Assembly (NCBI RefSeq): GCF_036669915.1
Contig: NC_089320.1
Location: forward strand, 15,915,874 to 15,979,873
Reading direction: 5' to 3'
DNA length: 64,000 nucleotides
Source: Pocillopora verrucosa
Lineage: Eukaryota
The first letter of the stretch is position 1, and every line of letters begins with the position of its first letter. The notes beneath the pieces were generated by a model. It was not told where the DNA came from, ran no database searches, and saw only the letters and a list, made by a program, of their open reading frames with translations. Positions 3,691-57,316 of the stretch are shown here, piece by piece. A program made the position numbers and the translations under genes.

Positions 3691-4802
3691 TAATATACAA
3701 TGATGTTTTCACATCTTTGAGGCAAAAGAGTTCAAAGTCTGGCTAAACAGTTCAAGGAATTGTTCAGTCTGTGTCAGAAGCACTTTCGATGAAATGGAAT
3801 TGTCGTTTGCGAGGTTTAACCATGTTTGTTTTTAATTTCGGCCTAGGATCGCTCGAGGTATGTGTTAAGCCAGGTCGGCTCGTAATTTTTGATTTTCTTG
3901 TCAATTCCCTTCTCTAAACACCACTTTTTCCAAACCGACAACCAAAAAGCAGTGCTTTTTACAATGTTTTCGTTGTTAGAACTGTCTTTCAGCTGTTTGG
4001 ATAGTTTGGTTTCTTACGGACTCACGGTGGTTTTTAACTTTGCTAGGAATATGGCTGTTGTGAATACAGTCAATTAAATGTGTTGTTTTTACATCGTCCA
4101 ATTATTTTACATGGGAGTATACACTTAAAAGCAATTAAATCGATATAAACCAACTTGTGCACCTTTTTGACTGAAACAATTTCAAAATACCCCATTACCG
4201 ATACTTTGCCAAAAATTAAAATAGTAAAGAATGGAACGTAAAAGAAAAAATTTCGCCCCTTTAAGATGATCCTTCAAAGCCGTAAATTGGAGATTCCAGG
4301 ACGGTGGGTAGAGTAATTGTATTCTTCCAACAGCTGTGTAGCTGTGTAGAGTACTTGTATCCAGCTTCGAACAGGTAAACAAGCTAAACAGCTCTTGAAT
4401 GTTTTTGATATACGAAATTCATTGATTTTGATCGAGACAAAGCGACTTTGGAGGTAAGGAGTAAAAGGCATCGGTCGGGCATCACTAAAATCTTGAAAGA
4501 TTGCCAAATTGGAGATTTTTTTTTCTATTTTGAATATAACTGTTCCTTGTTTTAATTGAACAAAGAGGACATCATGATACGTTGATTAAAAACTGAATAC
4601 CTCCAGTGCTTGTTTTTCAATAGATGTAATCGAAACAAGATTCATCAACTGAACTGCGAGAGACGACGCGTGGGTTAGGACACTCATTAAACTCCACAAG
4701 GGTAATGTTGCTCTAATAAAAAGTTTAACCTAAAATTAACGCTTGTATTACCAATAATCCTTCACTCAGGGAGCTTCAAATCACTCGAGTTTGCATACAG
4801 AA

Positions 4803-8700: not shown

Positions 8701-9550
8701 CGGATGAAAATTTGTCTAAATGGTAGTTACGCATTAAGTCACCAAACTTTGTGAGGTTTTTTCGTGTTTATTTTTCATGTTGTTTCCAAGCTGATGACTG
8801 GCATGGAAAATCTTTTTTTTCAGTTATCTTCTCAACCAATTACATGTGTTGTTTTTACTCCGTCCAATTATTTCACATGGGATTATATAAATGTTTCTTT
8901 CGGGTACACTAACAAGCGACTAAATCGATACAAACGAACTTGTGTACTTTTTTGACTGAAACAATTTCAAAATATCTTTTTACCGATAATTTGTTAAAAA
9001 ATAAATATTATAAAGAATAGAACATCAAAGAAAACATTTCGCCCCTTTAAGATGACCCTGCAAAGCCATAAACTGAAGATTCCAGGACGGTGGGTAGAGT
9101 AATTGTATCCAGCTTCGAACAGGTAAACAAGCTAAACAGCTGTTAAATGTTTTTGATATGCGAAATTCATTTATTTTGATCGAGACAAAGCGACTTTGGA
9201 GGTAGGGAGAAAAAGGTATCGGTCGAGCATCACTAAAATCTTGAAAGATTGTTAAATTGGAGATTTTTTTTTTTTTTTACATTGCATGTAACTGTTCCTG
9301 GTTTTAATTGAACAAAGAGGACATCATGATACGTAGATTAAAAACTGAATAATTTCAGTGGTTATTTTTCAATAGATGCAATCGTAACAAGATTCATCAA
9401 ACTGCGAGAGACGACGCGTGAGCTGGGACACTCATTAAACTCCAAAAGGGTAATGTTTCTCTAATGAAAAAGTTTACTCGGAAAACCAAACACTTGTATT
9501 ACCAATCATCCTTCACTCTGGGAGCTTCAAATCCGAGTTTGCAAACAGAA

Positions 9551-10437
9551 ATGCTGTCCAATTCATCTGACGTATTAGATAGGTTGTGTTATGTTTATAC
9601 TTATAGAAATGTGAGCATCTCATTTAACTATTGGGCAACTCTGGCGAACAGTGTTTTTGCGTTTCTTCTCGCTCCCATGACAGTGACAGGGAATGCTTTC
9701 GTTTTGGCAGCAGTTTGGAGAAACCCGACGCTAAGGACTCCATCCCATGTGCTTCTTGCTGGATTGGCCTTCACGGACTTTTGCACAGGACTAATAACTT
9801 TGCCACTTACAGCTGCGTATAAGTTAGCACATTTAAGGAAAAGCAGTATGACATGCACTCTTGTTCTGATTTCATTTAGTGTTGGTCTGTTTTTTGCCTC
9901 CTTGACGGTCGTTGTCATAGTGATGGCTGCTGCAGAAAGATGGCTTTGCATGAGCCGGAGGTCTCTTCTTACAGTGCGCCGAGTTACCATTCTTTTTACC
10001 ATAATGGTGTGCTTGATAACTGCTTTTGTAACTGTCCGCGTTACCAGTTTTCGGCATCTATCGAAGGACATAGACAATTTGCTAAATGGAGCTTGACGGC
10101 AGCGGCGATTTGTATTCTGGTCATAGCAGTTTCGTATTACAAGGTGTTTGGAATAATTCGTCACCATCAAAAAGGAGTTCAAGCAAATCAAAATTCCATT
10201 GATATTTCAAAATATAGAAAATCTGTATTCACCGTTCTATATATACTTGCACTTTTTGTGATCACTTACCTCCCCTATCTGGGCAACGAGTTAACCTTTT
10301 ACGTTTTGCAAGAATTCGGAGACATGTTCCTAACACGCCATAATTTTACTACGATTTTTGTTTATGTTTCCTCGCTTTTAAATCCTTTGCTTTATTGCTG
10401 GAGGATTAAGGAGATTAAGATAGGTGTAAAAATTTAG
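9551..10437 (+). pseudogene. GPCR copy 3, pseudogene with frameshifts
   Basis: The ORF breaks at 10096 (TGA). Copies 1 and 2 read 'ggagcttttttgacagc' here and copy 3 reads 'ggagcttgacggc', a 4-nt deletion. Homology continues in another frame (ORF 9940-10437). A second 1-nt deletion near the 3' end gives '...GVKI*'. Confidence 0.7.
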
Positions 10438-30600: not shown

Positions 30601-33600
30601 CATTTTCATGAAAAATTAAACTGTGTCGTTAATACCAAGTGAAATACGGACCTTTTCCAGCAATAAAAATTTTTAGATAAAACTTCGAAATTTTTGCCTT
30701 TTTTAAGGTATCATACCACCTTAATCACTTTTGGTAACATGGTATCAACTTTTTAGCCGGGAATCTTCCCATCTTTAAATCCCTACTTGACAGAAACCTC
30801 CTACCCCTATAATGCCGAAAATGGGCGAACTCATTCTAGTAAATAAAGGGGGTAAGTTTCTAAAGAAACCGTGGTGCTGCATCGGTGGGAGAGTAATGTA
30901 TTATCAACTGAGTTGAAAAGGTAAATTGGCCACCGTAAAGAGTTTAAAAGCTGACGTTTTTAGCGTTAGCCCTTCGTCACACACAACCCACAATTCCTCC
31001 AATCGCTCTGACGAAGGGCTAATGCTTTGAAACTCTTTACGGTGGCCAATTTACGTTATCAATTCAGTTGATAATACTAAATTAACCATTTTAGTAACTC
31101 CATTGAAAATACGACCTCATTGCAGGCAATCCAGTCGTTTGAGCGACCCCATCCAGTGGCACATTCTCATTAGCCTTTTACAAGGAACGAACCAAGCTCT
31201 AGGGTTACTGTGAAATCTGATTTCAGATCTAAAAGCTTTAAAAGAAAATTCAGTCAAATTCTTTTTGTCTAGAATATGTCTATTTGATGCTTTAAAAATA
31301 ACATTGAAAACTACCCCGAAAAGGATTTTGAGTAAAGGAATAAAGAGACCCAGACTAAAATTTAATCCTGGGTTAGCGCTAATCGGCCTTCGAACAACTG
31401 GGCCCAGAACTGGGCCCAGAACTGCACCATTGTCCTTATTGCTCTGAAAAAAATATGTTATACCGCTGACATCTGTTTTCTCTAACAGGGTTCAAATCTT
31501 AACGACGCCAAAAAGATACTACTGATGTGCCTTAGTCTTGTGAAGGAAGGTTGGATTTTCAACGTACTCGTGTTTGGAAGCAGTAAGTTCATTTGTGTGT
31601 TAAAGGGATTTTTTGAAAAAAGATATACCACGGACTTACACATTGCAACTCAAATGCGTTTCTTCATTGGAAAAGAAAGTTTCATGTGTCTTATCTCATA
31701 CTAGTCCATGGTCATATTTTCGTCAGAATAGCTAATTGCACTCGCTCATGCGCCTCACATTCGTAGACTCCGTTGAAGCCACGTTAGACATAAGAAGGCA
31801 CCACTCCTAAAGCACGAAGATCAGAACAGTGCCAAAAGAGAGGCTCGAAAAAAATCTGTTTTAAACGAGACTTAGAGAAAATTTTTTAACAACTAATGTC
31901 TTCAGTTACCACGATGTTTGCACATACTCGTCCCCATGATGTGCAATGTTCCTGGAGCCGACACCACAACTGTGGTGCGATATTCGTGAACCGTTAGAGT
32001 GGAATCGAAATATCTGAAGTTTTAATTTTTGAACACATCTTAAAACACCTGGATTTAGATGTTAAATGGTGTGCATTTTGAAGCGTAATTTTGTAACAAC
32101 TCAAGCGTGCAAATATGAAATAACTATCCTTGAAAAACGCCAGTGCATTTCAGCATGATAATCAGTCACGCGTTAACGTCACGTCGTAACGATTGCGGAT
32201 TTCAAGACATTTAAAAAATTTCACTTATGGTGTGACGTATTTTCCTTTCTTCAAGTACTCCCTTCAAGATTCTTGAGCGTAAGCTTCTTCTCTCCAACCT
32301 TTTTATTTAAACCTCTGTTCAGTGTGTTCATAACTCTCAAATGAACAAAGCAATGGTTTAACTGTGCGAGAGAGAGAGAAAAAGAAACTTGGTTTTGCTT
32401 CATTCTTTACAGATATTGTGAAAATCACTCTATTCTGTCACGAGTCAATTATTTAGTCAAAAGATAATCAGACTCTTTAATTGATAGTAGTTTAAAGTCC
32501 ATATACTCAAAACTTTGAAACCATTATTAAATCCAACAGATACAGATGCTTTAGAAGGATTTTACTGTAAAGTTTTCTCCAGAATGTGTCTTTTAATTTG
32601 TCGTTTTCTAATGATTTTTCGTTATTTAAAATGTGCAACCCACGAAGATGACTTTGAACGTGCGCAAGTTAGATCTGCTCAGTTCTTACGTATTGTTTGG
32701 AATTTGCATAATTGTTTTTACAGTTTGCAATATCGATTCATCAACAAGCGAAGCGCCGGCGCCGGTTCAGAAAAACAAAAATATTTTTAGGAGCGGAGAA
32801 ATCGTTAAAAATGACGAAGGTGCTGACGAGACAAGGAAAGCTTCAACAAGTCGAACGAAACGGTGCGGTGATGTCGCACGATTTAGATGATAGTGTTTAC
32901 AAAAATGGGTCACGGAAAGGAGGTAAAACTGAAGAGGTCCACCGCTACTCCATGTTATTACGTGAAGATCAAATCCCACAAGCTTTCCGCACCGAGTTTC
33001 TTACGACAAGATACCGGCCGCGAAACCTGACCGCTCTCGATAGCGTGAAGAGTGTTTTCTACGCCAACAACGAGACAGTAAATTTCTGGAGCCATGTTCT
33101 CTCCGCCGTGATACTCATTGCCCGCTACTGCTCAGTGGTGTGGAACCATAATCCTTTCACTGATCATTTTTATTTTCCACTGGTGTCGTACACTCTCGGC
33201 TGCTGCATTATGTACACGATGAGTTGTGTGGCCCATATGTTCAGCTCTATGACCGAGCTACAAAACCACATCGGGTACTACCTGGATTACGCTGCTATCA
33301 GCGTATACACATTTACCAATGGCCAAGCCTTCTATTTTTACTGCCATCCGCTGGGATCTGGGCTCCTTTTGTTCGACTGGCGGGAGTTGTTCCTATTCGT
33401 TTCAGCCCTGATTTCGTTCAGTGCCACTTTCAACTGTTGCAAGTCTCGTCATCAGTGGTTCGATCTCCGTTTCATCATCCGCACCGGTTTCTACATCCTA
33501 TCCTGGTTGCACAACTGTTCACCGTACTTCGTTCGTCTGTTCGTGTGCTCTTCTGATCCTGCATGCAATCCCGATTCTCTTGGTCTCTTCGTAGGGTGTC

Positions 33601-36600
33601 TTATCTCGTTCGCCGCCGCTGCCTTAATGAATATGACCCGAATACCTGAACGGTTCGTTCCCGGGTTCTTCGATTTTATCGGGCAAAGTCACAACTTTCT
33701 TCATGTGCTTACCACTACCGGTGACCATTTTGCATTCTCCGTTCTCCTTTCGGATCTCTCAGCCAGAAAAGAATTCCTCATCACGGAACATACACCGAGT
33801 TTTTTCGAGACGATCGGTTTGACTCTTTTAGTTCTGGTTGGGAATCTCGCTATCGTACTCTGGTTTGCTAGGTCTTTAATTTCGAATTCATCCGGTAAAA
33901 TTGGACATGATAAATCTACTTAAACTGAACTTTTAAATTTCTGCGAAGGAAGGCGAGAAGTTCGCCTATGTTGCAAATACTGTAATTTGATCGAAGTGGA
34001 TGTTTCCTCCAAAAGTAAAATTTATGTTAAGTTTGCCATTGTTTTTCTAAAGAGGAACGCGTGAAAATTGTAAAGAAGAACAAGCGGTTTGCTTTCTACT
34101 GTTGAGATACATATAGTATGAATTTAGTTGAATATTTTTTATGTTATTTTAAGTACAGATGTTTTATGTCACCGAGGCAAGTTGTCCTCTTCAGAGAAAT
34201 GTCCGAAACTTTTTCTTTCAATTAGGACTTGATCTTTTAATGAGGTTTTTTATATATATTTTTAATTAGAAAGGTATTTGAATTCATTTTTTGCAGATAT
34301 CAATGGCCTGTTAACACTTCAGTGTTCCACGCTATTCTTGTGCTGATCATTGTAATGTAATGTCCATGAAAATTAGATGAAAATGAACTTTTTACAGACA
34401 TAGTACCTTTGTTCTACTTGTAAATTGATTTCATGATTGTCTTTACTCGCAAAATGTTTTTACCATTGTGGTTAAAACAAATTTTGAGACAGCTTTGGTC
34501 ATCGTACTCGAACTGTTATCAGAATAACTGCTTTTAAGTGGCGCACATTCAATCCTCGTTTCAGCAGCTCTCTTTAAATGAACGGCCCTCCAATAAAAAA
34601 TTAGAAACAATTGAAAAAAGCGCTCTCTTCAGTCCCTTTGTTGTAAGGACGAGTTACAAAACCTTTAAGAACAATGTTTTATTATGAGAGAGGATTAGAT
34701 TTCGGCGTTGATTCTTTGACTGGTTTATCACACTCGTCTATCCTTTCTTCCAATAACTGATAATAGATTCTAACTAAAGCATTTCAATAAAGGAAACCAT
34801 TTCCTTTTCTACATAGCGCTCATTGCAAAATTGTAAGTTGTGACCGATCCTAACATTCACCATCTTTCTATTCTACTCATAGTATCTGGTTTTTTGTTGT
34901 TGTTTTTTTCTTTGTTTTTTTCATTCTGCATCTTAAAGTGACCACATCTGGCCTCGTTTTTGGGAAAAATTCAATGAGTGTCTTCTCTTGCCCTTGTAAA
35001 AGCGCCCATTTATTTCCTATATTAAAATATACGCCCCAAACGCGAGGATTTTCAAAGGTGCTTGCTTCCGGATGTTTTTATGGGTCTGATGTAGTTGTTG
35101 TTTTATCAAGAGCTGCATGGAATTTTGATATGTTTCCTCGTGATACCTAATCTCAAGTAGAGAGAATAATATTATTTTCAGATATTACATCAACTTGTTC
35201 CTGTGGTAGCCCTGCTCGCATTGTGCGGGGCTCCACGTGAAGAGCTATTTTAAGAGCTCTATAAAGCAGTCTACTTTTAGTCTAGTTCAAAGGATATATT
35301 ACGACTTTGGAACTCTATCCACTTAGAGCATCCTTTTGGTGATATGTTATTGCATCTAAAAAATTCTTCTCAATAATTTAAGGGAATTATCCGTCTAGAC
35401 AGAAATTATAACAAGAAGACTGACTGTACGTGCGTTTCATGCATGCGCTTCAACCGTTACATTCAAGCAAACGTCGTGATTTATAGCACTACGATTAGCG
35501 AATTTCCGCTGAAACGCTAACGTTTCCATAGAAATTTGTTAAATAAAACTTTTCTGGTGACTTGATTGTCCAGAGTCATCACCTGCTTTGATGCTATAAA
35601 GAAACAAAAAAAGCGAGAAGCCCTCATGAGGGTACTGCTTCTAGCAACCTGTTTCTCTATCCAATGAATGAATTTTATCGTTTTGTTTCCGCTACAGTAT
35701 TGTATCACCTAGCTTTGTTAGTTCGTTATAATGTCAGTTTAAAGCTCATACCGAAACATCCCGCGAAGAAAACGAGGAAAATCAGATTCTGTTGATTTTT
35801 TCCTAGATAGAATAAATCACAACGGAATTGTTTTACAGATTTTTTACATACATCTCTGTACAATTAACTCCATTTCATGCGGTCCGTTTTTTTGTAATAC
35901 ATTGCAAAGTCGATGGTTCGAATACTCGTGAGTGGAATTGATAAATTTGTGGAGTTTATCACGAACGTTGTTTTTACTTGAAATACCAAATTTTTAACTA
36001 GTATTACTGTTTTGTTTCAAATTATTTTCAGTTTGGCCCATATTTACGCAAATATTCAAATATAACAGAGGGTCCCTCGAGACTTATACAATAAATATTA
36101 ACATGAATAATGGGACTTTCCTAATCTATCAAATTTATGCGCCACAGGCGAAAAAAATCTCTTTTGTTCGCCTTTATAATACTGGCAAAGGTAATTGCTG
36201 GCGTTCTAATGCTGGGAGATGCTTTCTAGAAAGATGATCTGGTAAATATTTAAAATTATATGACGTTAGTCAACGCGAGCAGACGCGCGTGGGATTCTAC
36301 AAGCCAGTTGCAATTGAACTTATTGTGCCATCCATTTCATACCGGTTTTAGCGCTGGCTTGTTTTGTTCGGGAATGTTGTATTAATCTGTGGTTTCGTGT
36401 AGTTCTTAATGAACTTTTCAAGAGAATGTCTGCGTATCTGTCCTGCCAGTGTAGCAGAGAACGATTTTATTTATTCATGATAAGCGTCGCGACTGGTAAG
36501 CGGTCCGATCAGCGCTTGGCGTTTTCAGAACTGGTAGCGGTTTGATATCAGTGCTTGACTTGACACCGGGTAAGCTCAAGGAAATTGAGCAAAAGCGAAA

Positions 36601-39600
36601 GCACCTAGGAAATCAGCCGTAGGTGTGAGCCACATTTTTTATTTAACGGCGGGAATCTTCAAGTGAATGACCCACAAATGAATAAACTGTTGTCTAATTG
36701 AGGAAGACAACGCCATCAATCAATTTTATCGCTGAGTGAAACGAAAGAAGGAGCTGCTAATCCGTGAGAATGCATCTAAAGACGTACAAAAGGCCTCAAC
36801 AACCCAACGAAATGAAAGAAAGAAAGCCGACAAACTGTCACGAATGGGAAAATAATTTTTCAGCCTACGACAATATGAAGAAAACTTCAAGTGTAAAAGA
36901 GAACTCTGAAGGGGCGAACAAGAAAAAGTACGGCTTCTCAAGCAACCAAATCCCTGAAGTGTTCAGGACGCCATTCATCGTGTCTGGTTATCGACGACCC
37001 GGATTAACCTTCTGGGAATGTATCAGAAGTTTGCTCCGATCTTCCAACGAAACTATAAACGTTTGGAGCCACCTGCTTGCTCTAGTACTGTTCGTGTCTG
37101 TAAACATGACGTCCTTACCCACGACTGACCCATTTTTTCTGCCGCTGATCTCCTTCGCCGTGGGAATTTCGGTTCTGTATTTAATGAGTTCCTCTGCACA
37201 TCTTTTCAACTGCATGTCAGAGGATTCCCATAGAATTTGTTTCTTCTTTGACTACGCGGCTATCGGGTTTTACACGTTCACGGCCGGGCAAGCAATGTTT
37301 TCTACTCTAGGACCGCGGGCGCGTCTGCTTGGGCAGTGCACGATTCGCTTACCGTTTTCCAGTCTATTTCGACGTTCTTTTCGTTTTTCATAACTTTTTT
37401 GTGTTGCGCATCAAACCATCCACGTTGTAAAGATTACAAAGCCTTGCTAAGGGTCGGCGTTCTTGCCGTAAATTGGCTTGTTATCACATCACCGTACACG
37501 GTCCGTATTTTGTTATGTGAAAACGCCGACCCAGCGTATAACCGCATATCCACGGTGTATTTCAAACGTCATGTTGTCTTCTGCGGTTTAGGCGCCGCGC
37601 TGTACGCCGCGAGAGTTCCAGAACGTTTAATGGCAGGTGTGTTCGATAATTTTGGCCAAAGCCACAACTTAGCTCATATATTGATCGCCATGGGTATCCA
37701 ACAGGCGTTCAACGCGGCCCAAGTGGATCTTCAAGAAAGGAGATCAGCTCTGTTAGATCGTTTTTCTTCACAGCCCACTCTTATGAACACGGTCGGCGTG
37801 GCCATGTTTGTTCTCTTTGGACATGTTGCTATTGTCTTGTGGTGTGCGGGAAAGCTGCGTTCTGTAAAGCACAAATCTGAGAGTATTAACAATTAGTTAT
37901 CGCATAAACTGAGAATGATTTCAGACTTATTTTTAAGGCTTTAAATATTACATTTTCTTTGAGTCCTTTCCGCATTTTTCAAAAACGGTGATATAAGATC
38001 TCCCTTATAGGAAAGCAAAAATAGTGTAGGAATGAGTTTTATCTCCATTTAATGTAGCTACTTAGCGATGTATTGACTCGTTCTCCGCAGCGTGCAAAAT
38101 TATACTGATGTGATTTATGTAGGCGACAGAGAGCCTTATCCAAGAGTGTTTAGCGGCATAAAGTCGCTCAGGTTGTTTAAAGAACATGAATAACGAGCCG
38201 TTGGGCGAATGATTGTCAGTCTTTCTGAGTATTCTTTGAATATCCCGTGAGTGTTTATCACGGCATAAACCCTTGGAAAATGTATCTTACTTCTTTCATG
38301 ACATAACCTTAACATGGATTTGTCAGGTGGTGAATTAAATTTATTTCAATCATAAAAGCGATTGTTATGTGGTGCTTAATTGTTTATTGGCGTTAGAAAC
38401 CAATCAAAATGCTCGAAAGAGTAAGGAGGACCTGCATTAGCCCAATAGTTGAAAAAAATGAGATGAAAGATTCAGAAGAAGTTACGAAGAGAACTAACCG
38501 GGGCTAACGTAATTTTAAATGAAGCACAACCTCGTTCAGAGACAAATAGACTGATCAATTTTGACAGTGAAATCAAGAATATCGTAACCAGAAATTGTCT
38601 GACGAATGCGAAAGAGTACTACTGCATACAAAACCTTGCAAGCTTAGAACTCAGGTCTGCACCAGGAATTTTTTCTCGGTTTTAGTTTATTTCCGCGAAC
38701 TCTGCTCTTCTAGCGTTTTTCCTATTCTGTTTACTCAATTCGAATTGTATGAAAAGCAGTCATGCCAGAATGCACGAAATGCCATGTACATAAGTTTATA
38801 TTTAGCTACTTTATAGTCACAATGTAGTACCTCTTCTTTAATTAAATGGTTCTAATTTTCCTTGCAGTCAGTACTGAGCAATGGTCATAAATCCTCCTCA
38901 AAACCCTCAACAATTGTTTTACAGAAAAAACCTTCCGAACCAGCTTCAATCGCAGATCAGAGAATCAAAAGTTTCTGTAATTTATTTGAATTAGAATATT
39001 TATTGTCTCGTCAACAATTCAGATGTACATATGAATAGCGTTTGATTTACCAGGTGCTCTCCTCATTTTGTGGGAGTCAATGGCCTGGTAGAACGTGGGC
39101 TCGGAAACGGAATTGACCAATCAACTCGCGCATAACTTAGAATCCTTGGTTATAAATTTGATTGCCATGAACATTGAAGTTAAAATAAGAGTAACACGCT
39201 CCATTTCCATGCTCTTTTCGTAAATCCGTGGACGCTACATTTCTGTCAATGGTTTGTTGACTACAAACAAGAGATTAGTTTATAAATATATATTTAAATA
39301 TATGAAATTCATATATCTAAAATCTTCATTCATTACTTGGATGGTTTATTTGGACTCAACACATTGACCAGCTCCCAGTTGGCTTGTTAGCTCAGTTGGT
39401 AAAGCGCTGCACCGGTATCGCAGAGGTCATGGGCTCAAATCCCGTACGAGCCTGAATTTTTTTCAGGTCCTATTTTCAACTACTCGTTTCAGTAGTGTTC
39501 TTAGCTGCGAGGATCTCTTAATTTCATCTCTTCACCGCAGTGCAAATATATGAAATTCAGATTAGTTTGTAGTTTAACTACTGTGTTTTGACGGCAGGTA

Positions 39601-42600
39601 GGGAGGGACACGTTTAATTGTCAACTTACTCTGTAAACGTTTTTTAGCATTTCCATCGCGTCTTTAGCCCTTTGTGCAGCTTCAAATTGATATTAAATCA
39701 GTTCAGTTAACTGGCTGTACTTGTCTGTTTTCAGAACATTCAGAGCTGTTTCTATATAGCGTACGAAAAGACAAAGATTCTTTTGAAGAAGCTAAAAAAT
39801 TTGTCGAGGTAAGCAAACTCCTAAGCTTCCGTAGGGTGGCTCAGTTGACCAGAGACATATCGGCGTATACTAGGAGCTCATTAATGGGCTCCTGCGTTTA
39901 CTCAGATTCTCGCAATGGTAAAATATGAGCACAGGCTGCATACGATTTTCTCAGTTATTTCACTTGAAAATTTCTCATGCTGGCAAAATTTACCGCGTGT
40001 AAGGCACGTGAAAAGAATTTAAAAACTTGTTGAGAATGTAATTCCTTCCTCAGATTGCCTTCTCATTGAATATAACATTCTTTTTCTGTGCAAACGAATT
40101 AAAATGCCATTCCATTCCTTTGGTTTTCAACCCGGTTGAAAGTCAAGATCGTTAGTTATTACGTCATTTTTTTCCAGTCCTTAACCGCTGACAAAGGCAG
40201 CACAGAGTTGTGGCGAGTCCTTCGGAAGCTGTACATGTTACCCACCTTATCGACCGCTGACCACCCACGCAATCTGTTCTTAATCTCGGATGGCCACGTG
40301 ACAGAAGAGGAAACCACTCTTGGCTTGATCCGCAATCATTGCCAAAGTGACAGGCTCTTTTCCCTTGGTGTGGGGTAAGTAACCGGAAAAGGGCCTTTCC
40401 AGGTTAGGATCGTATTGTACCATATCTCCCAAAGGCTTCAGCTCTGTGTTGGATGCTCAAGCTAAGTTTAAATTTTGCAAACACTCAGGAAGGGCGTTTT
40501 GAGCTCTCAGATTTTGTAAACTTAATGTTTTTTCCATGAGATAAAGCTTCCCTTGTTTTTAATCTTAGCGAAGAGATCCAAAGATGTCGTCCAATTCGGT
40601 CTTCTTTTCTTTTCTGATGACAGTCGACTCAAGTCCGTGTGCTGCGGTTGGATGCCGGTACCAACTGAGCTACGATGCTTCAAGTTAGGATTGGGCAGAT
40701 CTCGGGGTGCGCAGCATCCCGTAAAGAAATGTGATCTCTGATACTAAATTATTTTTTCCTGTTCTACCTGTAGACGATAAGTGACAATTCGGATTTTTGG
40801 TTAAACGCCACCGATGACTTGAGGCGTTACCTTTAAAATTGCTATATATATCCGTTTGTATGCGAGAAGTTTCTCATCACTACACCTTGTTTGGTTCGTT
40901 TCCTTTTCTCCTCAGTTCCACGGCCAATCGTTACCTTCTACGAGCAATGTCCAGAGTTGGAGCTGGTGCCTCAGAGTTTTTGACGGTAGTGCCAAGTCTA
41001 AATGGGAAAGAAAGGTATGGAATTCCTGTCAACAGAAAAGGCTATTATGACTCGAGATGAAAATTGATGGCATGAAATTATTTATCGATGACAACTTCCG
41101 CCAATCTTCATAGTCTCTTAGAAAACGGCCATAGCTTCTGGATAAATTGATTATCCAAAGAATATTTAAGAATTCGTTGTTGAGAAAATAATGTTTATTT
41201 AGGTGAGATCGCAGTTGTCCAAAGCTGAGCAACCAGGCCTGACATCAGTGGGAGTAACCTGGCAGCAGCACGATTCCGGGTCCAGTCCCCCTGTACAAGC
41301 TCCTCACCAACTCTTGTCGCTGTTCAACGGTTCTAGACAAGTGGTTTATGGATTTGTTGATAACTGCACACAGGTAACTACTGATTTTCTGACATCAAGT
41401 TCATTTTAAGGCTACACTGATGCTTTGAATTTTTTCTGAACTCCTACCAGGCCACCTTGAGCGCAGAGGTTAACGGCACAACGGTATCAACCATGGTGTC
41501 TACCGCTGATCTAAATATCACTAAGGGCAAAGTAAGTGCAAGTGGAACAAAACTATCCAGCTTTCAGTGATTGCATTTTTGGTAATTTTCTACAATCGCT
41601 TCCTTGCACAGATTCTTCATCAGCTGACCGCGCGTGCAATCATCAGAGACTGGGACGAAGGTAGCCTGCATGAGCAGCGCACTGGGCACGAGGTTTGTCT
41701 CAAAAACATAGCTAATATTAAATAATATCATTCAACATTGCATTTATTTTAGCCGCATGTTGTCGGTGCTGAGTAATTCAAATCGTGTTGGAGGGAGAAA
41801 GAGGGATTGGCCCTAGTCTCCATAAGATGAGACAGAAACAATGAGGATTATGACGATAACTTCAAATGGTGATTGACACATTACACACTGATTCACTATC
41901 CTGATGGAGGGGTCTGGGTTCAAACCCTGCTCAGGGTTATCATGTTGTGTTCTTGGCGAACACAATTTACTGGCTGCGAGTTGTTCAAGGGGCTGACTAA
42001 GAGGCTAAACTAACACTAAATAACGGATAAGTCGCTATCTAGTGGATAACTGCGAACAAAACGTATTGCGCTATCCACGGGATAGAGATTTGTCTTGGGG
42101 ATTGAGTTATCCACCATTCAAAGAACCGGGGCAGCAGTTGCATGTTAATACCCAAGTGCTTACTTATGTCTAGGCCGTCGAGATTTGCCTTGTTCATGAC
42201 TGAACCGAGGTTGTTGTTATTTTATGATTCCGTAGATTGTGAAGAGAGACAGGAAAGACTTCATCGTTTCCTTGAGCAAGACGTTCTCCGTGGTATCCAA
42301 ATTCACAAGTTTTGTTGCAGTTGAACACAGAGAAAAGGTAGAAATGAGATAAAGGGAGAAATATGCCCAAGAAACCATGCAATTTAGTCTCATTGATGAA
42401 TAGCGTATGTACGAAATTATGATTCTTGCTTCATTTTGAGATTATTAAGAGTAACCGAGCCTTTCTAAGTCTTTTTTCAATTTGCTGAAGATTCGACCAT
42501 GGAGGTCGCCATATTAAATCTTTCTTAGCGATCTGGCTTCTTACCTGTGACATAACAAGGCTCATTCCCCACTCTTCCATCTCTCGCCAATTTGTTTGAA

Positions 42601-44400: not shown

Positions 44401-44457
<57 letters not shown>

Positions 44458-47400
44458 TTTAATTATCATGACTGTGACTGTCACTTCATAGGACAAGTTA
44501 CATCTTTTGTCAGTCCCTCCCCTCCCCTCCCCTCCCCTCCCCTCCCCTCTACTCCCCTCCTTTACTTAACCTCTAACCCTTGGATCGAAGTTTGAACTAA
44601 ACTTAACTAAACCTGTTGCTTGCTAGGAATAAAACATTTTCATTTTTTACTTTTTCTCGAAGCACGGAGTAGAACGGGTGATAATATGTGATCACACTTT
44701 TTTGACTCCGTAAAATAGGTCTTTTTGCCTAAAGTTTTCTTAAAAGTTATAACTCGCCATGAAGGGTTGTCGTTAACTGTCGCTGATATTTCCTATTCAT
44801 GTGATGACAATTACTAAACAACTTTCTTGATTTCACGCGATGGTCTGGTTTCCTGTGGCAAGCTATACTTTGGTTATTTTTCATCGGGATCAACCTTTTC
44901 AGTTTGCAGCTTGTTTGAGTTGGAAGTGGTTCAGTCATTCTCTCAATCGAACACTTTACCAATCGTTTGCAGTTGAAGATCGTGTTTTTCTAATGGAACC
45001 TGACCTTTGAATCTTCCCCTACATTAACATTTACATTTACATGTACATTTCAACAACCAAAGGGACTTTTAAATTTTTCTTCTAAGCGAAAATATAAAAA
45101 GCTGGAAATTGATCGATACCATGAGGTAAATAAGAACATCAACAAGAGAAAATCAATTTGAGAATTTCCGCGATTATACATTTTTTCGATTGTAGTCTCG
45201 ATGTGGAAGTGCCACGGAATTCCACAAGCAAAGATTCCGACTGGAGTGATCCTACAGAAGGTAGTGCCTTCTCCTCTGGGGATAGTAGCGACAATAATGT
45301 TTCGGTGGCGGAGGCAGAACTTCTGGATGAAGAGGAGCTTGAATTCTGTGAAATGGACCAGCAAGGTACGAGGAAACTTACACCAAGGGAGCGGCCATTA
45401 TTTAACCCTTTAACTCCTAGATCAAATTTGTAATTCTCCTTGCTATCAACCATACAATTCTTATAATGTTAGTTCAGAGAATTTAGTATTGGATAAACTA
45501 ATTATCCCCAAATTGATATTTTTTTATTCTTATCACTTATCTGGTTGATATTATATCGATATTTTACGGAGAAATTCTGTCTTGGAAAAGAAAAGTACAC
45601 ATAATCATTGTGGGAGCCGGGGAGTGGAGTGTACTTTCCCTCTGTTTATTTCTTGGGATTTATCAAATAGAGAATATTTATGGAAACCTCAACATGATAG
45701 TTTTCTGGGATAAGGATAGACAAAAAGGAGCAAAGAAGCTAACTACACCATGACAACATAAGTTAAATATCAAAATACGAATTATATTTTCAACCTACAG
45801 GCATGGATGAGGAAAAGGAAGCTTCAGAGGCGCCCTTCCCGCGGGTAATCACGAAAGACATGAATTCAGCCTCTAAAACGAGGACCCAAGGTACAGTAGA
45901 ACGTGTTTTCTCTTACTAGTCGGTTTGATGGGTGATGATAGTTAACCTTTGGACCCCTAAGTGTGACAAGCATCTAATTTCTCCTTACAATATCACACCT
46001 GAATCGTACATTAAGGTGTCGAATATAAAGGAAATGATCGCCAATTAAGAAGCTCTTGATTGTTTAACAAATTCTCCTTGTCAGCGCAGTAGGAAATGTG
46101 TGGAGAATAGTAAGGATAATATGCACACTGATGTTAGGATGTAACTACGTCTTGTCAACTTTTTTAAAGCCACTTGCTTGGCTTGGTGACTTTCGGGAAA
46201 TGTATAACATTTCATTAAAAGGAACCGCTTTATCTGGTGATCTTTCGAAGATTGATGCAGTAACTGGTTCTTCGAGCTATAAAAGTGAAATTTGAAAGGT
46301 GAAAATGACATTCCCCTTATCAATCAAGAAGAAGTCTTTCACTATAAAAAATTCAGGTCGTCATTCCTCCAATCATCAGTATGAGTTGGTATGACGTCAA
46401 ATTTCATGGCACATTAATTGAGAAAGCCTTATTGTAGTGAGGTTTTTTGATATGCAAATAATTATTACGGCCCATTAAAGGCTCGAGGTTGGAGGAAAAA
46501 ATTTCAAAAAGCGTATTTTCTTACCAAGTGCGATAATTTATTATTACAAAGAGTGACAGCTTTTTTGTTACATAGTGCGACGAAAAGTTTTTGTAAAGGT
46601 CGCCAGCTATTACAAAGTGCGACAATTTTTATACATAGTGCGACAGGTATTACAGAGTGTGACGATTATTACAAAGTTCGACAGAACAGAGTTTCTTATT
46701 TTGGGCGGACAACTACAAAGGATGATTTTCCAATGGATGTTACTCTGCATTCTCCAAAAGAAAAAGAAAAAAAACTAATTGCCACTAACATGATCCTGTT
46801 TCTGTCCAAACAGACATGGATACAGAGAGTGAATCAAAGCCTGAGCCGGTGAAGAGCATCGGCACTCGTGACGCCGAGAGAAAACCTGAGGCATTATGGC
46901 GAGCTAGGACAAAGTCACGCATGGCTGTGTTCTATAGAGGTTAATGTTAATCTCGTGATTTTGATGTTTTCTTTGTCTTTGTCTTCGTTCTTTTATTAGA
47001 GTTAGCGTATGAATATCAGTATCTGGGCAACTGCCCGCCCACCCACCCCTCCCCTAACTCAACAATAGTCAGTTGACAACAAGTTAAGGTTAATGTTGGC
47101 TTAGGGGAGGGGTAGGTGGGCAGTTGCCCAAATACTGATATTGATCCGAGTTAGCTTGATTTCTACTAGTTTGTATGCTTGCTTATTTTCGTTGTGCAAA
47201 ACTGTGCCTGTTTGCTACAATGTAGACTGCGTAAAGTGTTATCATTACACGTAGTTCGAAGTTCAAACTTAGTACAGTAGAAAAGTATACATAATCATGC
47301 GGGAGCCAGGGAGTGGAATGTACTTTCCCTCTGTTTATTTCTTGGGATTTATCAAATAGAGAATATTGATGGAAACCTCAACATGATAGTTTTCTGGGAT

Positions 47401-50400
47401 AAGGATAGACAAAAAGTAGCAAAGAAGCTAACTACACCATGACAACATAAATTAAATATCAAAATACGAATTATATTTTCAACTTACAGGCATGGATGAG
47501 GATGAGGATGAGGATGAGGAAGAGGAAGCCTTCAGAGGTGCCCTCCCCGCGGGTAATCTCGAGAGACATGAATTCAGCCTCTAAAACGAGGACCGAAGGT
47601 ACAGTAGAACGTGTTTTCTCTTACTAGTCGGTTTGATGGGTGATGATAGTTTACCTTTTGACCCCTAAGTGTGACAAGCATCTAATTTCTCCTTACAATA
47701 TCACACCTGAATCGTACATTAAGGTGTCGAGAATAAAGGAAATGATCGCCAATTAAGAAGCTCTTGATTGTTTAACAAATTCTCCTTGTCAGCGCAGTAG
47801 GAAATGTGTGGAGAATAGTAAGGATAATATGCACACTGATGTTAAGATGTAACTACGTCTTATCAACTTTTTTAAAGCCACTTGCTTGGCTTGGTGACTT
47901 TCGGGAAATGTATAACATTTCATTAAAAGGAACCGCTTTATCTAGTGATCTTTCGAAGATTGATGCAGTAACTGGTTCTTCGAGCTATAAAAGTGAAATT
48001 TGAAAGGTGAAAATGACATTCCCCCTATCAATCAAGAAGAAGTCTTTCACTATAAAAAAATTCAGGTCGTCATTCCTTCGATCATCAGTATGAGTTGGTA
48101 TGACGTCAAATTTTATGGCACATTACTTGAGAAAACCTAATTGTAGCGAAGATTTTTTGATATGCAAATAATTATTACGGCCCATTAAAGGCTCGAGGTT
48201 GGAGGAAAAAATTTCAAAAAGCGTATTTTCTTACCAAGTGCGATAATTTATTATTACAAAGAGTGACAGCTTTTTTGTTACGAAGTGCGACGAAAAGTTT
48301 TTGTAAAGGTCGCCAGCTATTACAAAGTGCGACAATTTTTATACATAGTGCGACAGGTATTACAGAGTGTGACGATTATTACAAAGTTCGACAGAACAGA
48401 GTTTCTTATTTTGGGCGGACAACTACAAAGGATGATTTTCCAATGGATGTTACTCTGCATTCTCCAAAAGAAAAAGAAAAAAAACTAATTGCCACTAACA
48501 TGATCCTGTTTCTGTCCAAACAGACATGGATACAGAGAGTGAATCAAAGCCTGAGCCGGTGAAGAGCATCGGCACTCGTGACGCCGAGAGAAAACCTGAG
48601 GCATTATGGCGAGCTAGGGCAAAGCCACGCATGGCTGCGTTCTCTAGAGGTTAATGTTAATCTCGTGATTTTGATGTTTTCTTTGTCTTCGTTCTTTTAT
48701 TAGAGTTAGCGTATGAATATCAGTATCTGGGCAACTGCCCGCCCACCCACCCCTCCCCTAACTCAACAACAGTCCGTTGACAACAAGTTAAGGTTAATTT
48801 TCGTTGTGCAAAACTGTGCCTGCTTGCTACAATGTAGACTGCGTAAAGTGTTACCATTACACGTAGTTCGAAGTTCAAACTTAGTACAGTAGAAAAGTAT
48901 ACATAATCATTGTGGGAGCCAGGGAGTGGAATGTACTTTCCCTCTGTTTATTTCTTGGGATTTATCAAATAGAGAATATTGACGGAAACCTCAACATGAT
49001 AGTTTTCTGGGATAAGGATAGACAAAAAGGAGCAAAGAAGCTAATCACGCCATGACAACATAAATTAAACATCAAAATACGAATTATATTTTCAACTTAC
49101 AGGCATCGATGAGGAAGCGGAAGCTTCAGAGGTGCCCTCCCCGCGGGTAATCACGAGAGACATGAATTCAGCAACTAAACCGAGGACCGAAGGTACAGTA
49201 GAACGTGTTTTCTCTTACTAGTCGGTTTGATGGGTGATGATAGTTAACCTTTTGACCCCTAAGTGTGACAAGCATCTAATTTCTCCTTACAATATCACAC
49301 CTGAATCACACATTAAGGTCTGGAGAATAAAGGAAATGATCGCCAGTTAAGAAGCTCTTGATTGTTTAACAAATTCTCCTTGTCAGCGCAGTAGGAAATG
49401 TGTGGAGAATAGTAAGGATAATATGCACACTGATGTTAAGATGTAACTACGTCTTGTCAACTTTTTTAAAGCCACTTGCTTTGCTTGGTGACTATCAGGA
49501 AATATATAGCATTTCATCAAAAGGAACCGCTTTATCTGGTGATCTTTCGAAGATTGATGCAGTAACTGGTTCTTCGAGCTATAAAAGTGAAATTTGAAAG
49601 GTGAAAATGACATTCCCCCTATCAATCAAGAAGAAGTCTATACTATAAAAAAATTCAGGTCGTCATTCCTCCAATCATCAGTATGAGTTGGTATGACTTC
49701 AAATTTCATGGCACATTACTTGAGGAAACCTTATTGTTGTGAAGATTTTTTGATCTGCACTAAATAAATAATTATTACGGCGCACTATTTAACTAAAATT
49801 GGTTTGGTACAATTCCATCAATTTCTTGGCTGCAGTCGGACAATTTGCGCAGGAGAGTTTTTCTAATCGAACATTAACTTTTGAAGATAAAAAGTCCTGG
49901 GATGCGTGTACATAAAAAATCGTAGGTCATCTCTGATTAAAAATCAAATTCTCCTCGGGTTTTACAAATAAAAAAGAGACAATTTGAAAGGCGAGTCGAA
50001 GAGTCTACCAGAAGTCACAATTTTGAAAAGGTTATCGCTCCTTTGTTTTCATTTATTGCTTCAAACTTCACTTGACAAACCAAACATTTCTCGACATTTC
50101 ATACTAAGAATTTGTTCCATATTTTCTTCGATACGAGTTTGTGCTCCCTGACCAAAAGAAAAGTCAGTTTAGTAGCGTTTTTGATGGAAAAGAGCGCCAG
50201 TTCACATATTTTTATTCAGGACTGTCTGTCTTAAAATAGAATAAACTACTCTGTTAGGTTTCAGATGAACATTCCATAATTTTTTTGTGTGGATTTCCTA
50301 GCTTTAAACGAACACAAAGATAGGTGTTCTTAGTCGTAACTTAATCTGGCTACTAATTATTTTTTTATTCTTTGATTTATCCCCTTAAGTAGATGAGAGC

Positions 50401-53400
50401 AAGAAGGCAGAAAAGAAAGAAAGTTACAAACCGCAAATGGAGCGAGGCGATGATGCTTCTCTGGTTACGCAAAGAGTCGCTTCGTCCTCATCATCGGCAT
50501 TCTTGCTCCCAAGACAGGATTATCCTTCTAATGTAATTACAAGAGACGGCGTGTCTGCCTTTGAAGCACCTGGTTTTGCTTTCACATCAAAGCTCGCAGC
50601 TCTTCCTACCACTGAGGCATCTTCGTGCCAAGCTGGTTCCGGTTTGTCTGACAAGTTACAACAGCCACAAGAACCATTATTAAAGAAGACAGCACCTGTT
50701 ACCTTTGGAGGAAGAATTGTTCAAAGAGAAGGTATTCCTTTTGGAAGATCTTGTCGTTTTGGTGGACAGAATATGAAGATTTCACAGCAGTCACAGCGAA
50801 ACCAATTATTTGGTAAGTCGGGAGAAGATGATGGATTATTTGATTCATCCAAAAAGAAAGCAATTCAAGAGATACCAACGTTCATGGAAAAGGAAGCAGT
50901 GCCCCCAGTTGTTGGAAGACGCCCAGGTTCTAGTCTGCAGAATATGGAGATGTCTAACTCAGCTCAGTCATCTGGTAGTTCTACGTTTGCCCGATTTCAG
51001 ACGTTGCAGCGAAACCCCTTAAATTTTCCACAAACTGGTGGATTATTTGGTAATTATCAGCAGATCAAAATGTTTTCCCAGCCACTGAAAGCTGCAACCG
51101 ATCCATGTAGCTCTCGTTCCACATTAAACAGAGCAGATCGTCGGATGGAAGAGGAAGTGAGGCAAGAGATACCAGCAACTATCAAAGGAGATGGAGCAGT
51201 TCCAATGAATGCAGAGCCAATGTTAAAACAGGAAACATGTCCAGTCCCAGGAAATCTCCAACAACCTCTTCCTCCACCTCCTGCACCACCACCACCACCA
51301 CCTGCTTCCCTTGCACCCTTGCACCGCCCTACTCTCCTCCCAGGGGGCTCTCGTCCTCCAACCGTTGTACCAGCTAGAGCGTCGTTGATGAAAGATTTCC
51401 CTGGAGTGAGCAAGACGCTAAAGGGAGTAACAGTAGCCTCTAAGCAGTCAGCATCTGCAACCACAACTGCAGTAACCGGATTTGGGGCTCCCCCTCCTCC
51501 TCCTCCTCCTCCGGCCTGTTCAGCAGCAGGCAGCTCTAAACTTCTTTCTGTCGGGTCAAAACCCCCTCCCTCGATCGGTTCAACATACCACGGGATCGTT
51601 TGTACGAGATCTTTAGAGATGAATGAAAATGAGATGAAATGTCGAGAGCTGAGGAAAGCCATCATTCAAGATGAGCGAGAAAAGCTAGAACGGATATTTA
51701 CTGCACAAAATTCGGTAAGTATCGCAAAATGCATACGATTATCCAATTAAGGGTGCTTATTTTCCATTGGTTAAAGTCACACAATCTAGGTGGGATTTCG
51801 TCATATTTCCATCATCAAACTGATCTGGGCAAATTCCAGTTGGTTTTCCGAACCTTAAACCTCAACTCTCTTCCTTAGAACTAACTGTAACGGCTTGAGA
51901 CTACGTGGGGACATGCAATTTTGCTATGAATCAGCAATTGAAATTTCCTAGATTGTAATATCATTCCCCAAATGCAAGTTTGGATTGTTATATCATAAAT
52001 TATTTTTAACTGATATATATTGATAACTCCTTACTCCTCAAATCGAATCATTGATCATATCCAGTAATTTACCGCATAGTAAATAATTTACTTTATCGGC
52101 CAGAGATTTGTTTAGGAATTGGTATTATTTTGGAACTGTAATTGTAAAAATTACAGTTCCATTACTCCTTATAAAAAGGAGGTTTGGTAATAGCCTGTTA
52201 ACTTCAAAATAATGAATATTCTTATGTTATAACAGTCGTGTGATACCATGGCTCCCCTCAGTCCCATGACCGTAACTAATTTAGTCGTAAATAATTGTTA
52301 ATTCTGTCTTCCTTTGGTAAAACAAGCTTCCCAAACGTCAGTGTAAGAAAAAAGATTCTTAAGCTAGAACCACCATTTATGGTGTAAAGAATCCAGGTAA
52401 GGGAGAATTCTTTGCCCTCGACCTTAAGTGTGTTTCAGGTACAGCCCAAGAGTCCTTTGGTTTCAATGATATAAACAGTACAGCTTATATTTTTTAATAA
52501 AATTTGTCGATTTTTTTTATTTGATGAGCTTTTTGGTGTTTTTCAGGAGGGTTTCTGGAATGTGGATGACTTGCCTATCATTGGTATAGACACACAAGGC
52601 TTTACTGATTTGCTGGCAGGTGCTGGTGCCAGGTCTCTTGGTACGCTTCTGTTCTGTTCTGTTCTGTTCTGTTCTGTATTGTTGCTGTTGTTTTATCTAA
52701 GACGGGTACACAATTGAAAGAGTAAAACATAGTCAAACGCCTTTCCTTCAGTACAAGATCTTTTGTTGAAATCTTTATTTCATTACATTTCTACCAACCT
52801 TATCAGCGACAACAGAAGATTCTACCGAGTTGCTAAATTGAGACTTATCTTGAACGTGGCGACATTAACAATGTGGGAATTTGCTGATTCTTTTGTAGAT
52901 TTTATACAGATTAATTCTAATTTATGCTTCGAATTTTTTCGAGATCGGGCAAAATTTAACCAGGATTTAGTTTCTCTCACTTCCTACCCCTCTCCTACGC
53001 TCTTGATTCTTCCCTCCTTGAGCCTTGTGCTTCTCCCGTTTGTCTGAAAAGAAACAGAGACTGCTAGGCGAGCCAAACAAAGTGAGGAATTATTTAATTC
53101 CAAAGGCTTAGCAATTGCCTACGTTTTAAAACAGAGGCTATGAAAATTTCGAAAATGGATAATTTTCCGTAAAACTTTCGTTGGACTTTGATGAGGAAGA
53201 CAAATTTTAATGCAGCCAAATTAAGAAGTAATTCCCTGATTTATTGTTTTACACGGCATTTCACGCGATACACTGCAGGTCTTAAAGTTTTTGAAAGCGT
53301 GAAAAGACTTCTGGCCACCTTCATGATGTTGGCGTTCATGAAACTGAGGCTTCATGTCGTGTTCCCACTGACGCTTCCATTCGGACAACCTGAGTCTGAG

Positions 53401-56515: not shown

Positions 56516-57316
56516 CTACTTGCTAAAAAGACGCGACAAAGCGAGCTGTTTTCGTAGATCGTCAACATGCTTTTCTTTGCTTGTAAGTCTCTTGTGTATT
56601 TCTTGAATTACCATTTTTCTTTCTTCGCTTATTCGTTTCTCGTGGCCGGCTTCCTGGCGAAGCTTGTCGACAACAACTTCAAGACGTGTGAGATTGGCGA
56701 CTGCGATGTTTCTCTCGTTTCGCAACTTCTCTGTCTCGTTGAGAATTTTTGCTTTGCTCTGAACTTTCTCCAACTCCTTTGCGTCTTTTACTTCTTTAAC
56801 CTTGTTGCGAAGTTTCAATTTCAGTTCATCGACGGCCAGTTCTGCCACAGACTTGTTGTTGATTGCTTCAGCTCGGTCGTACGACATTTTATGAATTGAT
56901 TCTTTCAGTCTTTTCAATTCCTCGTCTTTTCCGCGGATAACCTGTCCCCAGTTTTCAGGGAACGGAAGCTGAGAAATTTGGGCCTTTAGTTCTTCGTTTT
57001 CCTGGGAAAGAACAAGAAGTTTCGATTTCGTTTGCAGAAGTTCATCTCGTAACTGTTGACCCTCGTGCCTTAAAGCACCATTTTCTTCCCTTATCTCCAG
57101 GTACGCTTTGTAGATGATTTCGTAGTCTTTAGCTTTCGGTCGCTTTGGGGCTCTTTTGATCGGTTCCTCGACTGCGTAAATACCGTTTCTTGTAAACGTT
57201 CCTTTTGTTGGAGCGATAAAAATGTGACTGGTTCTCCGTGAGCCTGCAACGGCTGGTGTTAATCCAGTAAATCTAGAAGGCGCAGAAACTCTGAACTCCA
57301 TGTTAGCAAATGCCAT
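56516..57316 (-). CDS. Hypothetical single-exon coiled-coil protein (266 aa)
   Basis: Uninterrupted minus-strand ORF. The charged heptad-like stretch E/K/L-rich 'ELKAQISQL..KDEELKRLKESIHK..LKLKLRNKVKEVKDAKELEKVQSKAKILNETEKLRNE' covers most of the length. No named family recognised. Confidence 0.4.
   Translation of the reverse strand: MAFANMEFRVSAPSRFTGLTPAVAGSRRTSHIFIAPTKGTFTRNGIYAVEEPIKRAPKRPKAKDYEIIYKAYLEIREENGALRHEGQQLRDELLQTKSKLLVLSQENEELKAQISQLPFPENWGQVIRGKDEELKRLKESIHKMSYDRAEAINNKSVAELAVDELKLKLRNKVKEVKDAKELEKVQSKAKILNETEKLRNERNIAVANLTRLEVVVDKLRQEAGHEKRISEERKMVIQEIHKRLTSKEKHVDDLRKQLALSRLFSK

Follow-up and report, generated by a model that had tools for sequence, protein, structure and literature searches.

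A tandem array of cassette exons in a PARP4-like gene of Pocillopora, with exon copies more diverged than their introns

The window analyzed here, a 64,000-nucleotide (nt) stretch of contig NC_089320.1 from the coral Pocillopora verrucosa, contains a PARP4-like (vault PARP) gene in which two small exons, A and B, have been duplicated in tandem together with their introns, giving the exon order A1, B1, A2, B2, A3 just upstream of a long, proline-rich (Pro-rich) exon. The exon copies have diverged from one another about three times as far as the introns that separate them, replacement changes are in excess, and the exon content of the array differs between closely related corals. A single extra C shifts the reading frame of exon A2 in the window and is most likely a one-base assembly error. 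We consider it likely that these observations belong together and describe a fast-evolving A-(B-A)n array in the PARP4 linker, with the lesion in A2 being an error of assembly.

The cassette array and its host gene

Self-BLAST of the window resolves 2.5 head-to-tail units, each 1.6-1.7 kb long, between positions 45589 and 49778. Units 1 and 2 (45589-47094 and 47279-48798) are 95.7% identical over 1527 nt, units 2 and 3 (47185-48166 and 48797-49759) are 93.9% identical, and units 1 and 3 (45589-46456 and 48891-49759) are 94.5% identical. Adjacent copies of exon plus intron share 94-96% identity over 0.9-1.5 kb, which identifies the array as a tandem cassette duplication. Each full unit contains one A exon (90 nt) and one B exon (126 nt), and the third unit is partial, with a single A exon. 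An earlier reading of this DNA from its sequence alone (the sequence-only reading) had proposed the tandem duplication of a two-exon, phase 1-1 cassette in a PARP4-like gene, 5' of the Pro-rich exon, and self-BLAST, tblastn and the AG/GT exon boundaries bear this out. Its coordinates for the array, 45585-49771, are a good fit to the edges of ~45589 and ~49778 measured by edge alignment, and the partial, A-only nature of the third unit was implicit in it.

All five cassette copies in the window are flanked by AG and GT, and each is preceded by a pyrimidine-rich stretch (Table 1). A codon is split, one base to two, between the end of the upstream exon and the start of the Pro-rich exon, and because the flanking exons end and start in phase 1, the cassette exons between them are symmetric, phase 1-1 exons. 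Every copy has kept its splice sites and, apart from A2 as assembled, its symmetric phase and can be joined to its neighbors in frame, as is characteristic of tandem exon duplication. The RefSeq P. verrucosa protein XP_058952767.1 reads ...EMDQQ-G-[A1]-D-[B1]-G-[A2]-D-[B2]-G-[A3]-V-DESKK..., with the junction codons that phase 1-1 splicing predicts.

Table 1. Features of the cassette array and its surroundings. Positions are those of the window; RefSeq residues are those of XP_058952767.1.
Feature	Position	Strand	Description	Evidence
Tandem array	45589..49778	+	A-B-A-B-A, 2.5 units of 1.6-1.7 kb	self-BLAST, repeat families, edge alignments
Constitutive PARP4 exon	40899..41017	+	end of vWA domain; T6-to-T5 deletion at ~40977	intact in L011, L012 and RefSeq protein
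Upstream constitutive exon (E33)	45196..45365	+	170 nt, ends in phase 1, acidic and Ser-rich	tblastn, RefSeq residues 1339-1398; AG/GT
Cassette exon A1	45801..45890	+	90 nt, phase 1-1, encodes MDEEKEASEAPFPRVITKDMNSASKTRTQ	100% to RefSeq residues 1398-1427; AG/GT
Cassette exon B1	46814..46939	+	126 nt, phase 1-1, 3' half hypervariable among copies	97.7% to RefSeq residues 1428-1470
Cassette exon A2	47490..47598	+	109 nt as assembled; removing the extra C leaves 108 nt in frame	aligns in two frames to RefSeq residues 1470-1505
Acidic expansion in A2	47494..47526	+	(GATGAG)n, +18 nt relative to A1 and A3	Tandem Repeats Finder (TRF), period 6, 5.5 copies
CC in A2	47529..47530	+	single C in all 12 other A copies	alignment of A copies
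TAA in A2	47582..47584	+	stop put in frame by the extra C	translation
Cassette exon B2	48524..48649	+	126 nt, phase 1-1	100% to RefSeq residues 1506-1548; AG/GT
Cassette exon A3	49103..49192	+	90 nt, phase 1-1, terminal A of 'ATKPRTE' type	96.7% to RefSeq residues 1548-1577
Pro-rich exon	50390..51714	+	1325 nt, largest of the gene, starts in phase 1	99.3% to RefSeq residues 1578-2019

Two full-length annotated proteins from the same protein clusters, XP_058952767.1 (P. verrucosa, 2145 residues, annotated as 'protein mono-ADP-ribosyltransferase PARP4-like') and CAH3035263.1 (P. meandrina, 2050 residues), each map collinearly by tblastn to positions 15435-54149 on the forward strand. The Pfam domains of XP_058952767.1, namely BRCT (12-95), PARP_reg (282-382), PARP (414-589), VIT (654-764) and VWA (907-1062), follow the order of BRCT, PARP regulatory, PARP catalytic, VIT and vWA domains found in PARP4/vault PARP. 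A precomputed Pfam list gives PF26156 (PARP4_MVP-ID), the C-terminal domain that interacts with the major vault protein, in the P. meandrina ortholog, and our own Pfam run on XP_058952767.1 did not report this family. The cassette corresponds to RefSeq residues 1398-1577, a domain-free stretch after the vWA domain, and the gene model of XP_058952767.1 splices all five cassette exons in frame. The upstream exon has also changed fast, being 82.5% identical to the P. meandrina protein at the amino acid level (tblastn), and the Pro-rich exon differs from that of P. meandrina by two in-frame 15-nt length differences. Close relatives of the Pro-rich open reading frame (ORF), 92-95% identical, come only from Tara Pacific coral scaffolds and Logan assemblies, and a phmmer search of 1.84 billion representative proteins found no homolog of this exon beyond the Pocillopora cluster.

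An A-B pair encodes a charge-rich, cysteine-free peptide of 72 residues. With A2 corrected, the 180-residue cassette region is composed of 24% Asp and Glu, 18% Lys and Arg, 18% Ser and Thr, 8% Pro and 17% bulky hydrophobic residues, with no Cys, and no Pfam family matched it in the search of XP_058952767.1; from its composition, this peptide is probably disordered. Exons of both types start with an acidic 'MD.E.E' motif and end in basic residues. Exon B has an invariant core, 'SESKPEPVKSIGT.DAER', followed by a variable tail that ranges from 'ALWRARTKSRMAVFYR' to 'VKRRSGAMPPIAVSLR' and 'ALRRAMAMPAMAMPPLAVSLR'. Over their first 19 residues, A and B show a weak similarity, with a score that 20 of 5000 shuffles attain and with no similarity at the DNA level, a hint that A and B may themselves be old duplicates of one another.

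Divergence of the exon copies and exon content among genomes

The divergence of the exons, which the sequence-only reading had missed, was measured in an alignment of nine complete A-to-A units from four genomes: the window, the Tara scaffolds L001 and L012, and the P. meandrina reference locus (L011; GCA_942486045.1, array at L011 30507-35494). The mean pairwise difference is 8.3% for exon A, 9.8% for exon B and 19% for the 3' half of B, compared with 2.8-3.0% (2.9%) for the two introns, and none of ~1100 contiguous intron blocks of matching size attains the exon values. Segregating sites make up 25% of exon columns versus 8.5% of intron columns (Fisher p = 4e-10).

The excess lies in replacement changes. 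In the annotated frame, the cassette exons have a mean synonymous difference (pS) of 0.025, equal to the intron rate, and a mean nonsynonymous difference (pN) of 0.102. When minimal events are counted per codon column, in place of non-independent pairs, 53 are nonsynonymous and 5 synonymous (omega ~3, one-sided binomial p = 0.006). The same pattern is obtained from the two reference-grade (long-read) assemblies alone (8.4% versus 2.9%; 33.5 versus 3.5 events), and from the window alone (6.5% versus 2.1%; 12 nonsynonymous events and no synonymous ones), and it holds equally in the short-read scaffolds L001 and L012 alone. The rest of the gene, compared as a control between the window and P. meandrina, has a pS of ~0.02 and a pN of 0.004-0.015, with pN/pS of 0.23 across the catalytic, VIT and vWA regions, 0.44 for the stretch that follows the vWA domain, 0.90 for the Pro-rich exon and 0.30 for the C-terminal domain. 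A localized nonsynonymous excess in a gene otherwise under purifying selection is the pattern of positive selection, established here by counts over ~68 codons in related copies, and its best reading is that diversifying selection would act on the encoded cassette peptide.

An account of the exon divergence without selection would combine relaxed constraint with a local mutational or alignment effect (CpG mutation, hexamer slippage or a 15-nt duplication-prone stretch), or would have gene conversion homogenize the introns while sparing old exons. Several observations favor such an account. GC content is 52% in the exons versus 35% in the introns, CpG is likewise more frequent in the exons, and exon A begins with a microsatellite at its 5' end. 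Introns within a genome differ by 0.5-2.7%, as would fit concerted evolution, and the sample comprises only 68 codons. However, relaxed constraint cannot carry exons beyond the neutral rate, and the observed excess over the introns therefore argues against it, while pS, which equals the intron rate, should have risen as well if the exons were mutational hotspots or had long gone unconverted. CpG hypermutation was rejected as the source of the divergence, since 23% of exon columns remain variable versus 6.9% of intron columns when columns in CpG context are left out, and no microsatellite underlies the 3' half of B, where variation is highest. We also rejected a wrong frame or non-coding sequence, given that the other two frames give omega values of 0.6-0.9 and that the nine units contain 36 and 66 stop codons in these frames and none in the annotated one. 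Both the frame-specific excess and the lack of stops are also independent support for A and B being real coding exons. On balance, divergence of the exons without selection appears unlikely, and diversifying selection on the cassette peptide is preferred.

In all genomes compared, the array has the form A-(B-A)n. Three A and two B exons (A-B-A-B-A, n = 2) are present in the window, L001, L012 and the RefSeq P. verrucosa protein, while the P. meandrina reference has four A and three B exons (A-B-A-B-A-B-A, 3.5 units, n = 3), with copies that can be told apart and all seven exons intact. The variable number of repeat units that the sequence-only reading had anticipated is thus found at the genome level, as 2.5 versus 3.5 units. 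Exon content differs in another way in L037, L038 and L042, scaffolds of a P. meandrina-like lineage that each come from a separate Tara sample. In these, a 309-nt deletion (equivalent to window positions 48940-49248) with a CTTT microhomology junction takes out the terminal A exon along with its splice sites, and B is then followed, in frame, by the Pro-rich exon. That the repeat or its copy number is an artefact of collapse or false expansion during assembly seems extremely improbable. Short-read assemblies cannot cross the array, with more than 25 short-read contigs ending within ~100 nt of the repeat edge, and scaffold L036, which spans it only through a 100-N scaffold gap, was rejected as a copy-number witness. 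Against an artefact, four independent sources (the window, the RefSeq protein, L001 and L012) give the 2.5-unit layout with unit-specific differences, and the P. meandrina assembly, itself independent, has distinguishable copies in its 3.5 units.

From the RefSeq gene model, we predict that the cassette exons are included in the mRNA. They are present in both annotated gene models, but CAH3035263.1 joins the upstream exon straight to the fifth cassette exon and uses three of the seven available (A3-B3-A4), a shortened cassette that may reflect either real skipping or an annotation shortcut induced by the repeat. Searching a protein database that returns cluster representatives with the spliced peptide (upstream exon, cassette and Pro-rich exon) retrieved only three genomic ORF representatives. 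Metagenome contigs matched neither the spliced A-to-B junction nor an invariant stretch of exon B; that collection therefore contains no Pocillopora DNA and does not bear on splicing.

The introns of the array contain further repeats. A 143-nt palindrome in the intron after B1 (47006-47148) has 44-nt arms that are 84% complementary and a GC-rich core, 'CCCACCCACCCCTCCCC'; its counterpart in unit 2 (48710-48790) retains one arm only, and the full palindrome is present in L037. It may be a hairpin-forming insertion or the remnant of a miniature transposon. The A-to-B intron of both full units carries a 19-nt minisatellite (consensus CAGTTATTACAAAGTGCGA, ~4 copies, 67% matches) at 46604-46684 and 48314-48394, and an (AT)26 microsatellite (44403-44454) and a (CCCTC)9 repeat (44515-44560) are found farther upstream, in the intron two exons before the cassette.

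The frameshift in exon A2

As assembled, A2 exceeds the 90 nt of exon A by the 18 nt of its (GATGAG)n expansion and one extra C. The sequence-only reading had correctly recognized, in this copy, the 18-nt expansion and a 1-nt insertion that introduces a stop, as TRF and translation show, but had taken the exon to be decayed and probably skipped, and this part of its interpretation is probably incorrect. Among 13 complete A and nine B copies, drawn from the same four genomes, the extra C is the sole frame-breaking change, and the remaining length differences are all multiples of three (+6, +12, -6 and +15). The RefSeq P. verrucosa protein, ~99% identical to the window translation, contains the same 18-nt expansion (MDEDEDEDEEEE...) with its frame intact, and deleting one C from A2 of the window restores the RefSeq peptide. 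The splice sites and polypyrimidine tract of A2 are intact. A pseudo-exon would combine a real lesion with lost constraint, whereas A2 has a single extra C, intact splice sites and an intact ortholog.

Comparable one-base changes occur elsewhere in the window. The constitutive exon that encodes the end of the vWA domain has lost one T from a run of six, a one-base deletion in a T-run at 37302 splits the ORF of the second of two PAQR/HlyIII copies and is absent from L011, where this ORF is intact, and the third of three G-protein-coupled receptor (GPCR) genes consists of two overlapping ORFs with the two halves of its 7tm_1 domain, an apparent one-base frameshift. With A2 included, four single-base run-length frameshifts fall within 64 kb, and an indel-prone assembly is therefore likelier than exon decay. 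Lone one-base frameshifts in this assembly should not be taken as biology without read support. As judged from these sequence comparisons, the A2 frameshift is most likely a one-base assembly error, and the gene in this animal most likely encodes A1-B1-A2-B2-A3 in frame, as its RefSeq ortholog does.

If A2 were instead a genuinely decayed pseudo-exon, it would be skipped or would trigger nonsense-mediated decay, and the protein would read A1-B1-B2-A3. The exon as assembled, 109 nt long and with an in-frame TAA, is compatible with this, skipping it would restore the frame through the phase-compatible junction of B1 to B2, and the (GATGAG)n expansion marks A2 as prone to mutation. We nevertheless find decay of A2 improbable, given its intact splice signals, the preserved frame of the expanded RefSeq ortholog, the absence of the extra C from all 12 other A copies and the similar lesions in two neighboring genes, which point to assembly quality. 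The deletion at 40977 bears on this as well, as it falls in a conserved constitutive exon of 119 nt that cannot be skipped in frame; were it real, the reading frame of the gene would be lost ~400 codons before A2, and leaving out A2 could not restore it. Two frame-breaking indels in ~6.4 kb of coding sequence could also mean that both are real and that the entire PARP4-like copy of this haplotype is a recently inactivated pseudogene. This is very unlikely, as no further disabling changes were found, all splice sites checked are intact, pN/pS over the catalytic, VIT and vWA region is 0.23, the frame is unbroken in the RefSeq P. verrucosa model at 99% identity, and the same type of one-base run-length change has struck the unrelated PAQR copy 2 and the third GPCR gene.

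The preferred account therefore remains that of a fast-evolving A-(B-A)n array with an assembly error in A2. Under this account, unequal crossing-over between units would change their copy number, and the separate 309-nt deletion would have removed the last A exon in another lineage, with the frame kept by any such change. Replacements in the exons, above all in the 3' half of B, have accumulated ~4x faster than changes at synonymous or intron sites, and diversifying selection would act on a disordered, exposed segment of the protein, as it reportedly does in the largest exon of vertebrate PARP4. Several considerations weigh against this account. The test for selection covers only ~68 codons, in copies that are related by duplication and probably by gene conversion, such that events are not fully independent; the event-based p values are modest (0.006 overall, 0.02-0.04 in subsets); and part of the divergence of exon A lies in the slippage-prone (GATGAG)n, where the alignment is ambiguous. 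L001 and L012 are short-read scaffolds that may be chimeric inside the repeat, and inclusion of the cassette rests on two computational gene models that disagree (all five exons versus three of seven). The Tara contigs of the same lineage (L022-L035) all stop at the repeat edge, and none spans A2, and exact look-ups of the frameshifted A2 ORF and of the intact B2 ORF gave no record of either; a private but real A2 frameshift allele, taken jointly with inactivation of the whole gene copy, is unlikely but keeps appreciable weight.

Neighboring features and comparison with known systems

Other coding features surround the array on both sides. The two intronless PAQR/HlyIII ORFs (PF03006; 32712-33923 and 36764-37896, forward strand) lie inside the 8.1-kb intron of the PARP4-like gene at 31582-39730; the first is intact and encodes 403 residues, and both copies are found in the same intron in P. 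meandrina. Upstream of the PARP4-like gene, the three single-exon GPCR ORFs of the rhodopsin family (7tm_1) are arranged in tandem on the forward strand (1459-2460, 4791-5738 and 9464-10437), and the overlapping ORFs of the third cover 7tm_1 profile positions 1-118 and 153-260. Downstream, a 266-residue ORF on the reverse strand (56516-57316), of the same length in essentially every Tara scaffold, has only a weak, sub-threshold match to the DUF7491 coiled-coil family and probably represents either a conserved gene with a single exon or one large exon.

Intragenic exon duplication is in itself ordinary, and in this gene it is already part of the RefSeq model. Under Patthy's phase-compatibility rule, tandem duplication of symmetric, phase 1-1 exons gives rise to internal protein repeats. 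The coral cassette resembles symmetric-exon duplications generally, in that phase 1-1 exons have been copied with their introns as genomic units, splice sites are kept and any number of copies remains in frame. In contrast to most described cases, which involve folded extracellular modules or mutually exclusive exons, a two-exon cassette that encodes a short, charge-rich and probably disordered peptide has been duplicated here in an intracellular protein. Unlike most described tandem exon duplications, the coral exon copies also diverge faster than their own introns. The work of Noel et al. (Genome Biology, 2023) on the Tara Pacific Porites and Pocillopora genomes reportedly deals with whole-gene tandem duplicates, local tandem duplication being a major mode of change there; the present case has its genus and data source in common with that work, but the duplication is of exons within a gene rather than of whole genes.

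A full-text literature search found no paper on PARP4 in corals. In vertebrates (primates, bats and others), positive selection on PARP4 is confined to a disordered region of ~360 residues, which coincides with the largest exon (human exon 30), is highly variable in sequence and length, and has been proposed as a pathogen-recognition surface of the vault-associated protein (Daugherty et al. 2014, PMC4038475). The coral and vertebrate proteins are alike in that a domain-free segment between the vWA domain and the vault-binding C-terminus shows an excess of replacements against purifying selection elsewhere in the gene, and in that this segment is disordered, by prediction or by composition, and varies in length between species. 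They differ in how the signal is distributed: in vertebrates, it lies in one large exon and consists of point substitutions and indels, whereas in the coral it is strongest in the small, duplicated cassette exons that directly precede the largest exon, and the length is altered in whole-exon steps through genomic copy number, on top of point replacements. The largest exon of the coral gene, with a pN/pS of ~0.9, is not clearly above 1, unlike its vertebrate counterpart. The correspondence between the two linkers is one of position only: sequence homology between them was not detected by phmmer with the Pro-rich exon or by Pfam with the cassette, searches that included no direct comparison with vertebrate exon 30.

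The array may thus be viewed as a further case of tandem exon duplication and, at the same time, of a fast-evolving PARP4 linker, both of them known phenomena, with a moderately supported signature of diversifying selection. What it adds is the evolutionary pattern, in which exons are ~3x more diverged than introns and exon content differs between close corals, at the position in PARP4 that has a localized arms-race signature in vertebrates. If this account is true, the array offers a compact, PCR-sized locus of ~5 kb at which structural and amino acid diversity could be followed across Pocillopora populations, and fast evolution of the vault-PARP linker is not peculiar to mammals, which would strengthen a putative role of vaults and PARP4 in host-pathogen interactions. 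A bolder proposal, which we regard as doubtful, is that the disordered linker of PARP4 is an ancient and recurrent target of diversifying selection in cnidarians and vertebrates alike. In Pocillopora, this would have taken the form of a modular cassette array, in which unequal crossing-over acts on units whose exon copies are kept different by selection despite homogenization of the introns, and which could supply population-level, and perhaps isoform-level, diversity in a vault-associated surface that recognizes pathogens or symbionts, much as has been suggested for the single large exon of vertebrate PARP4 with respect to pathogens.

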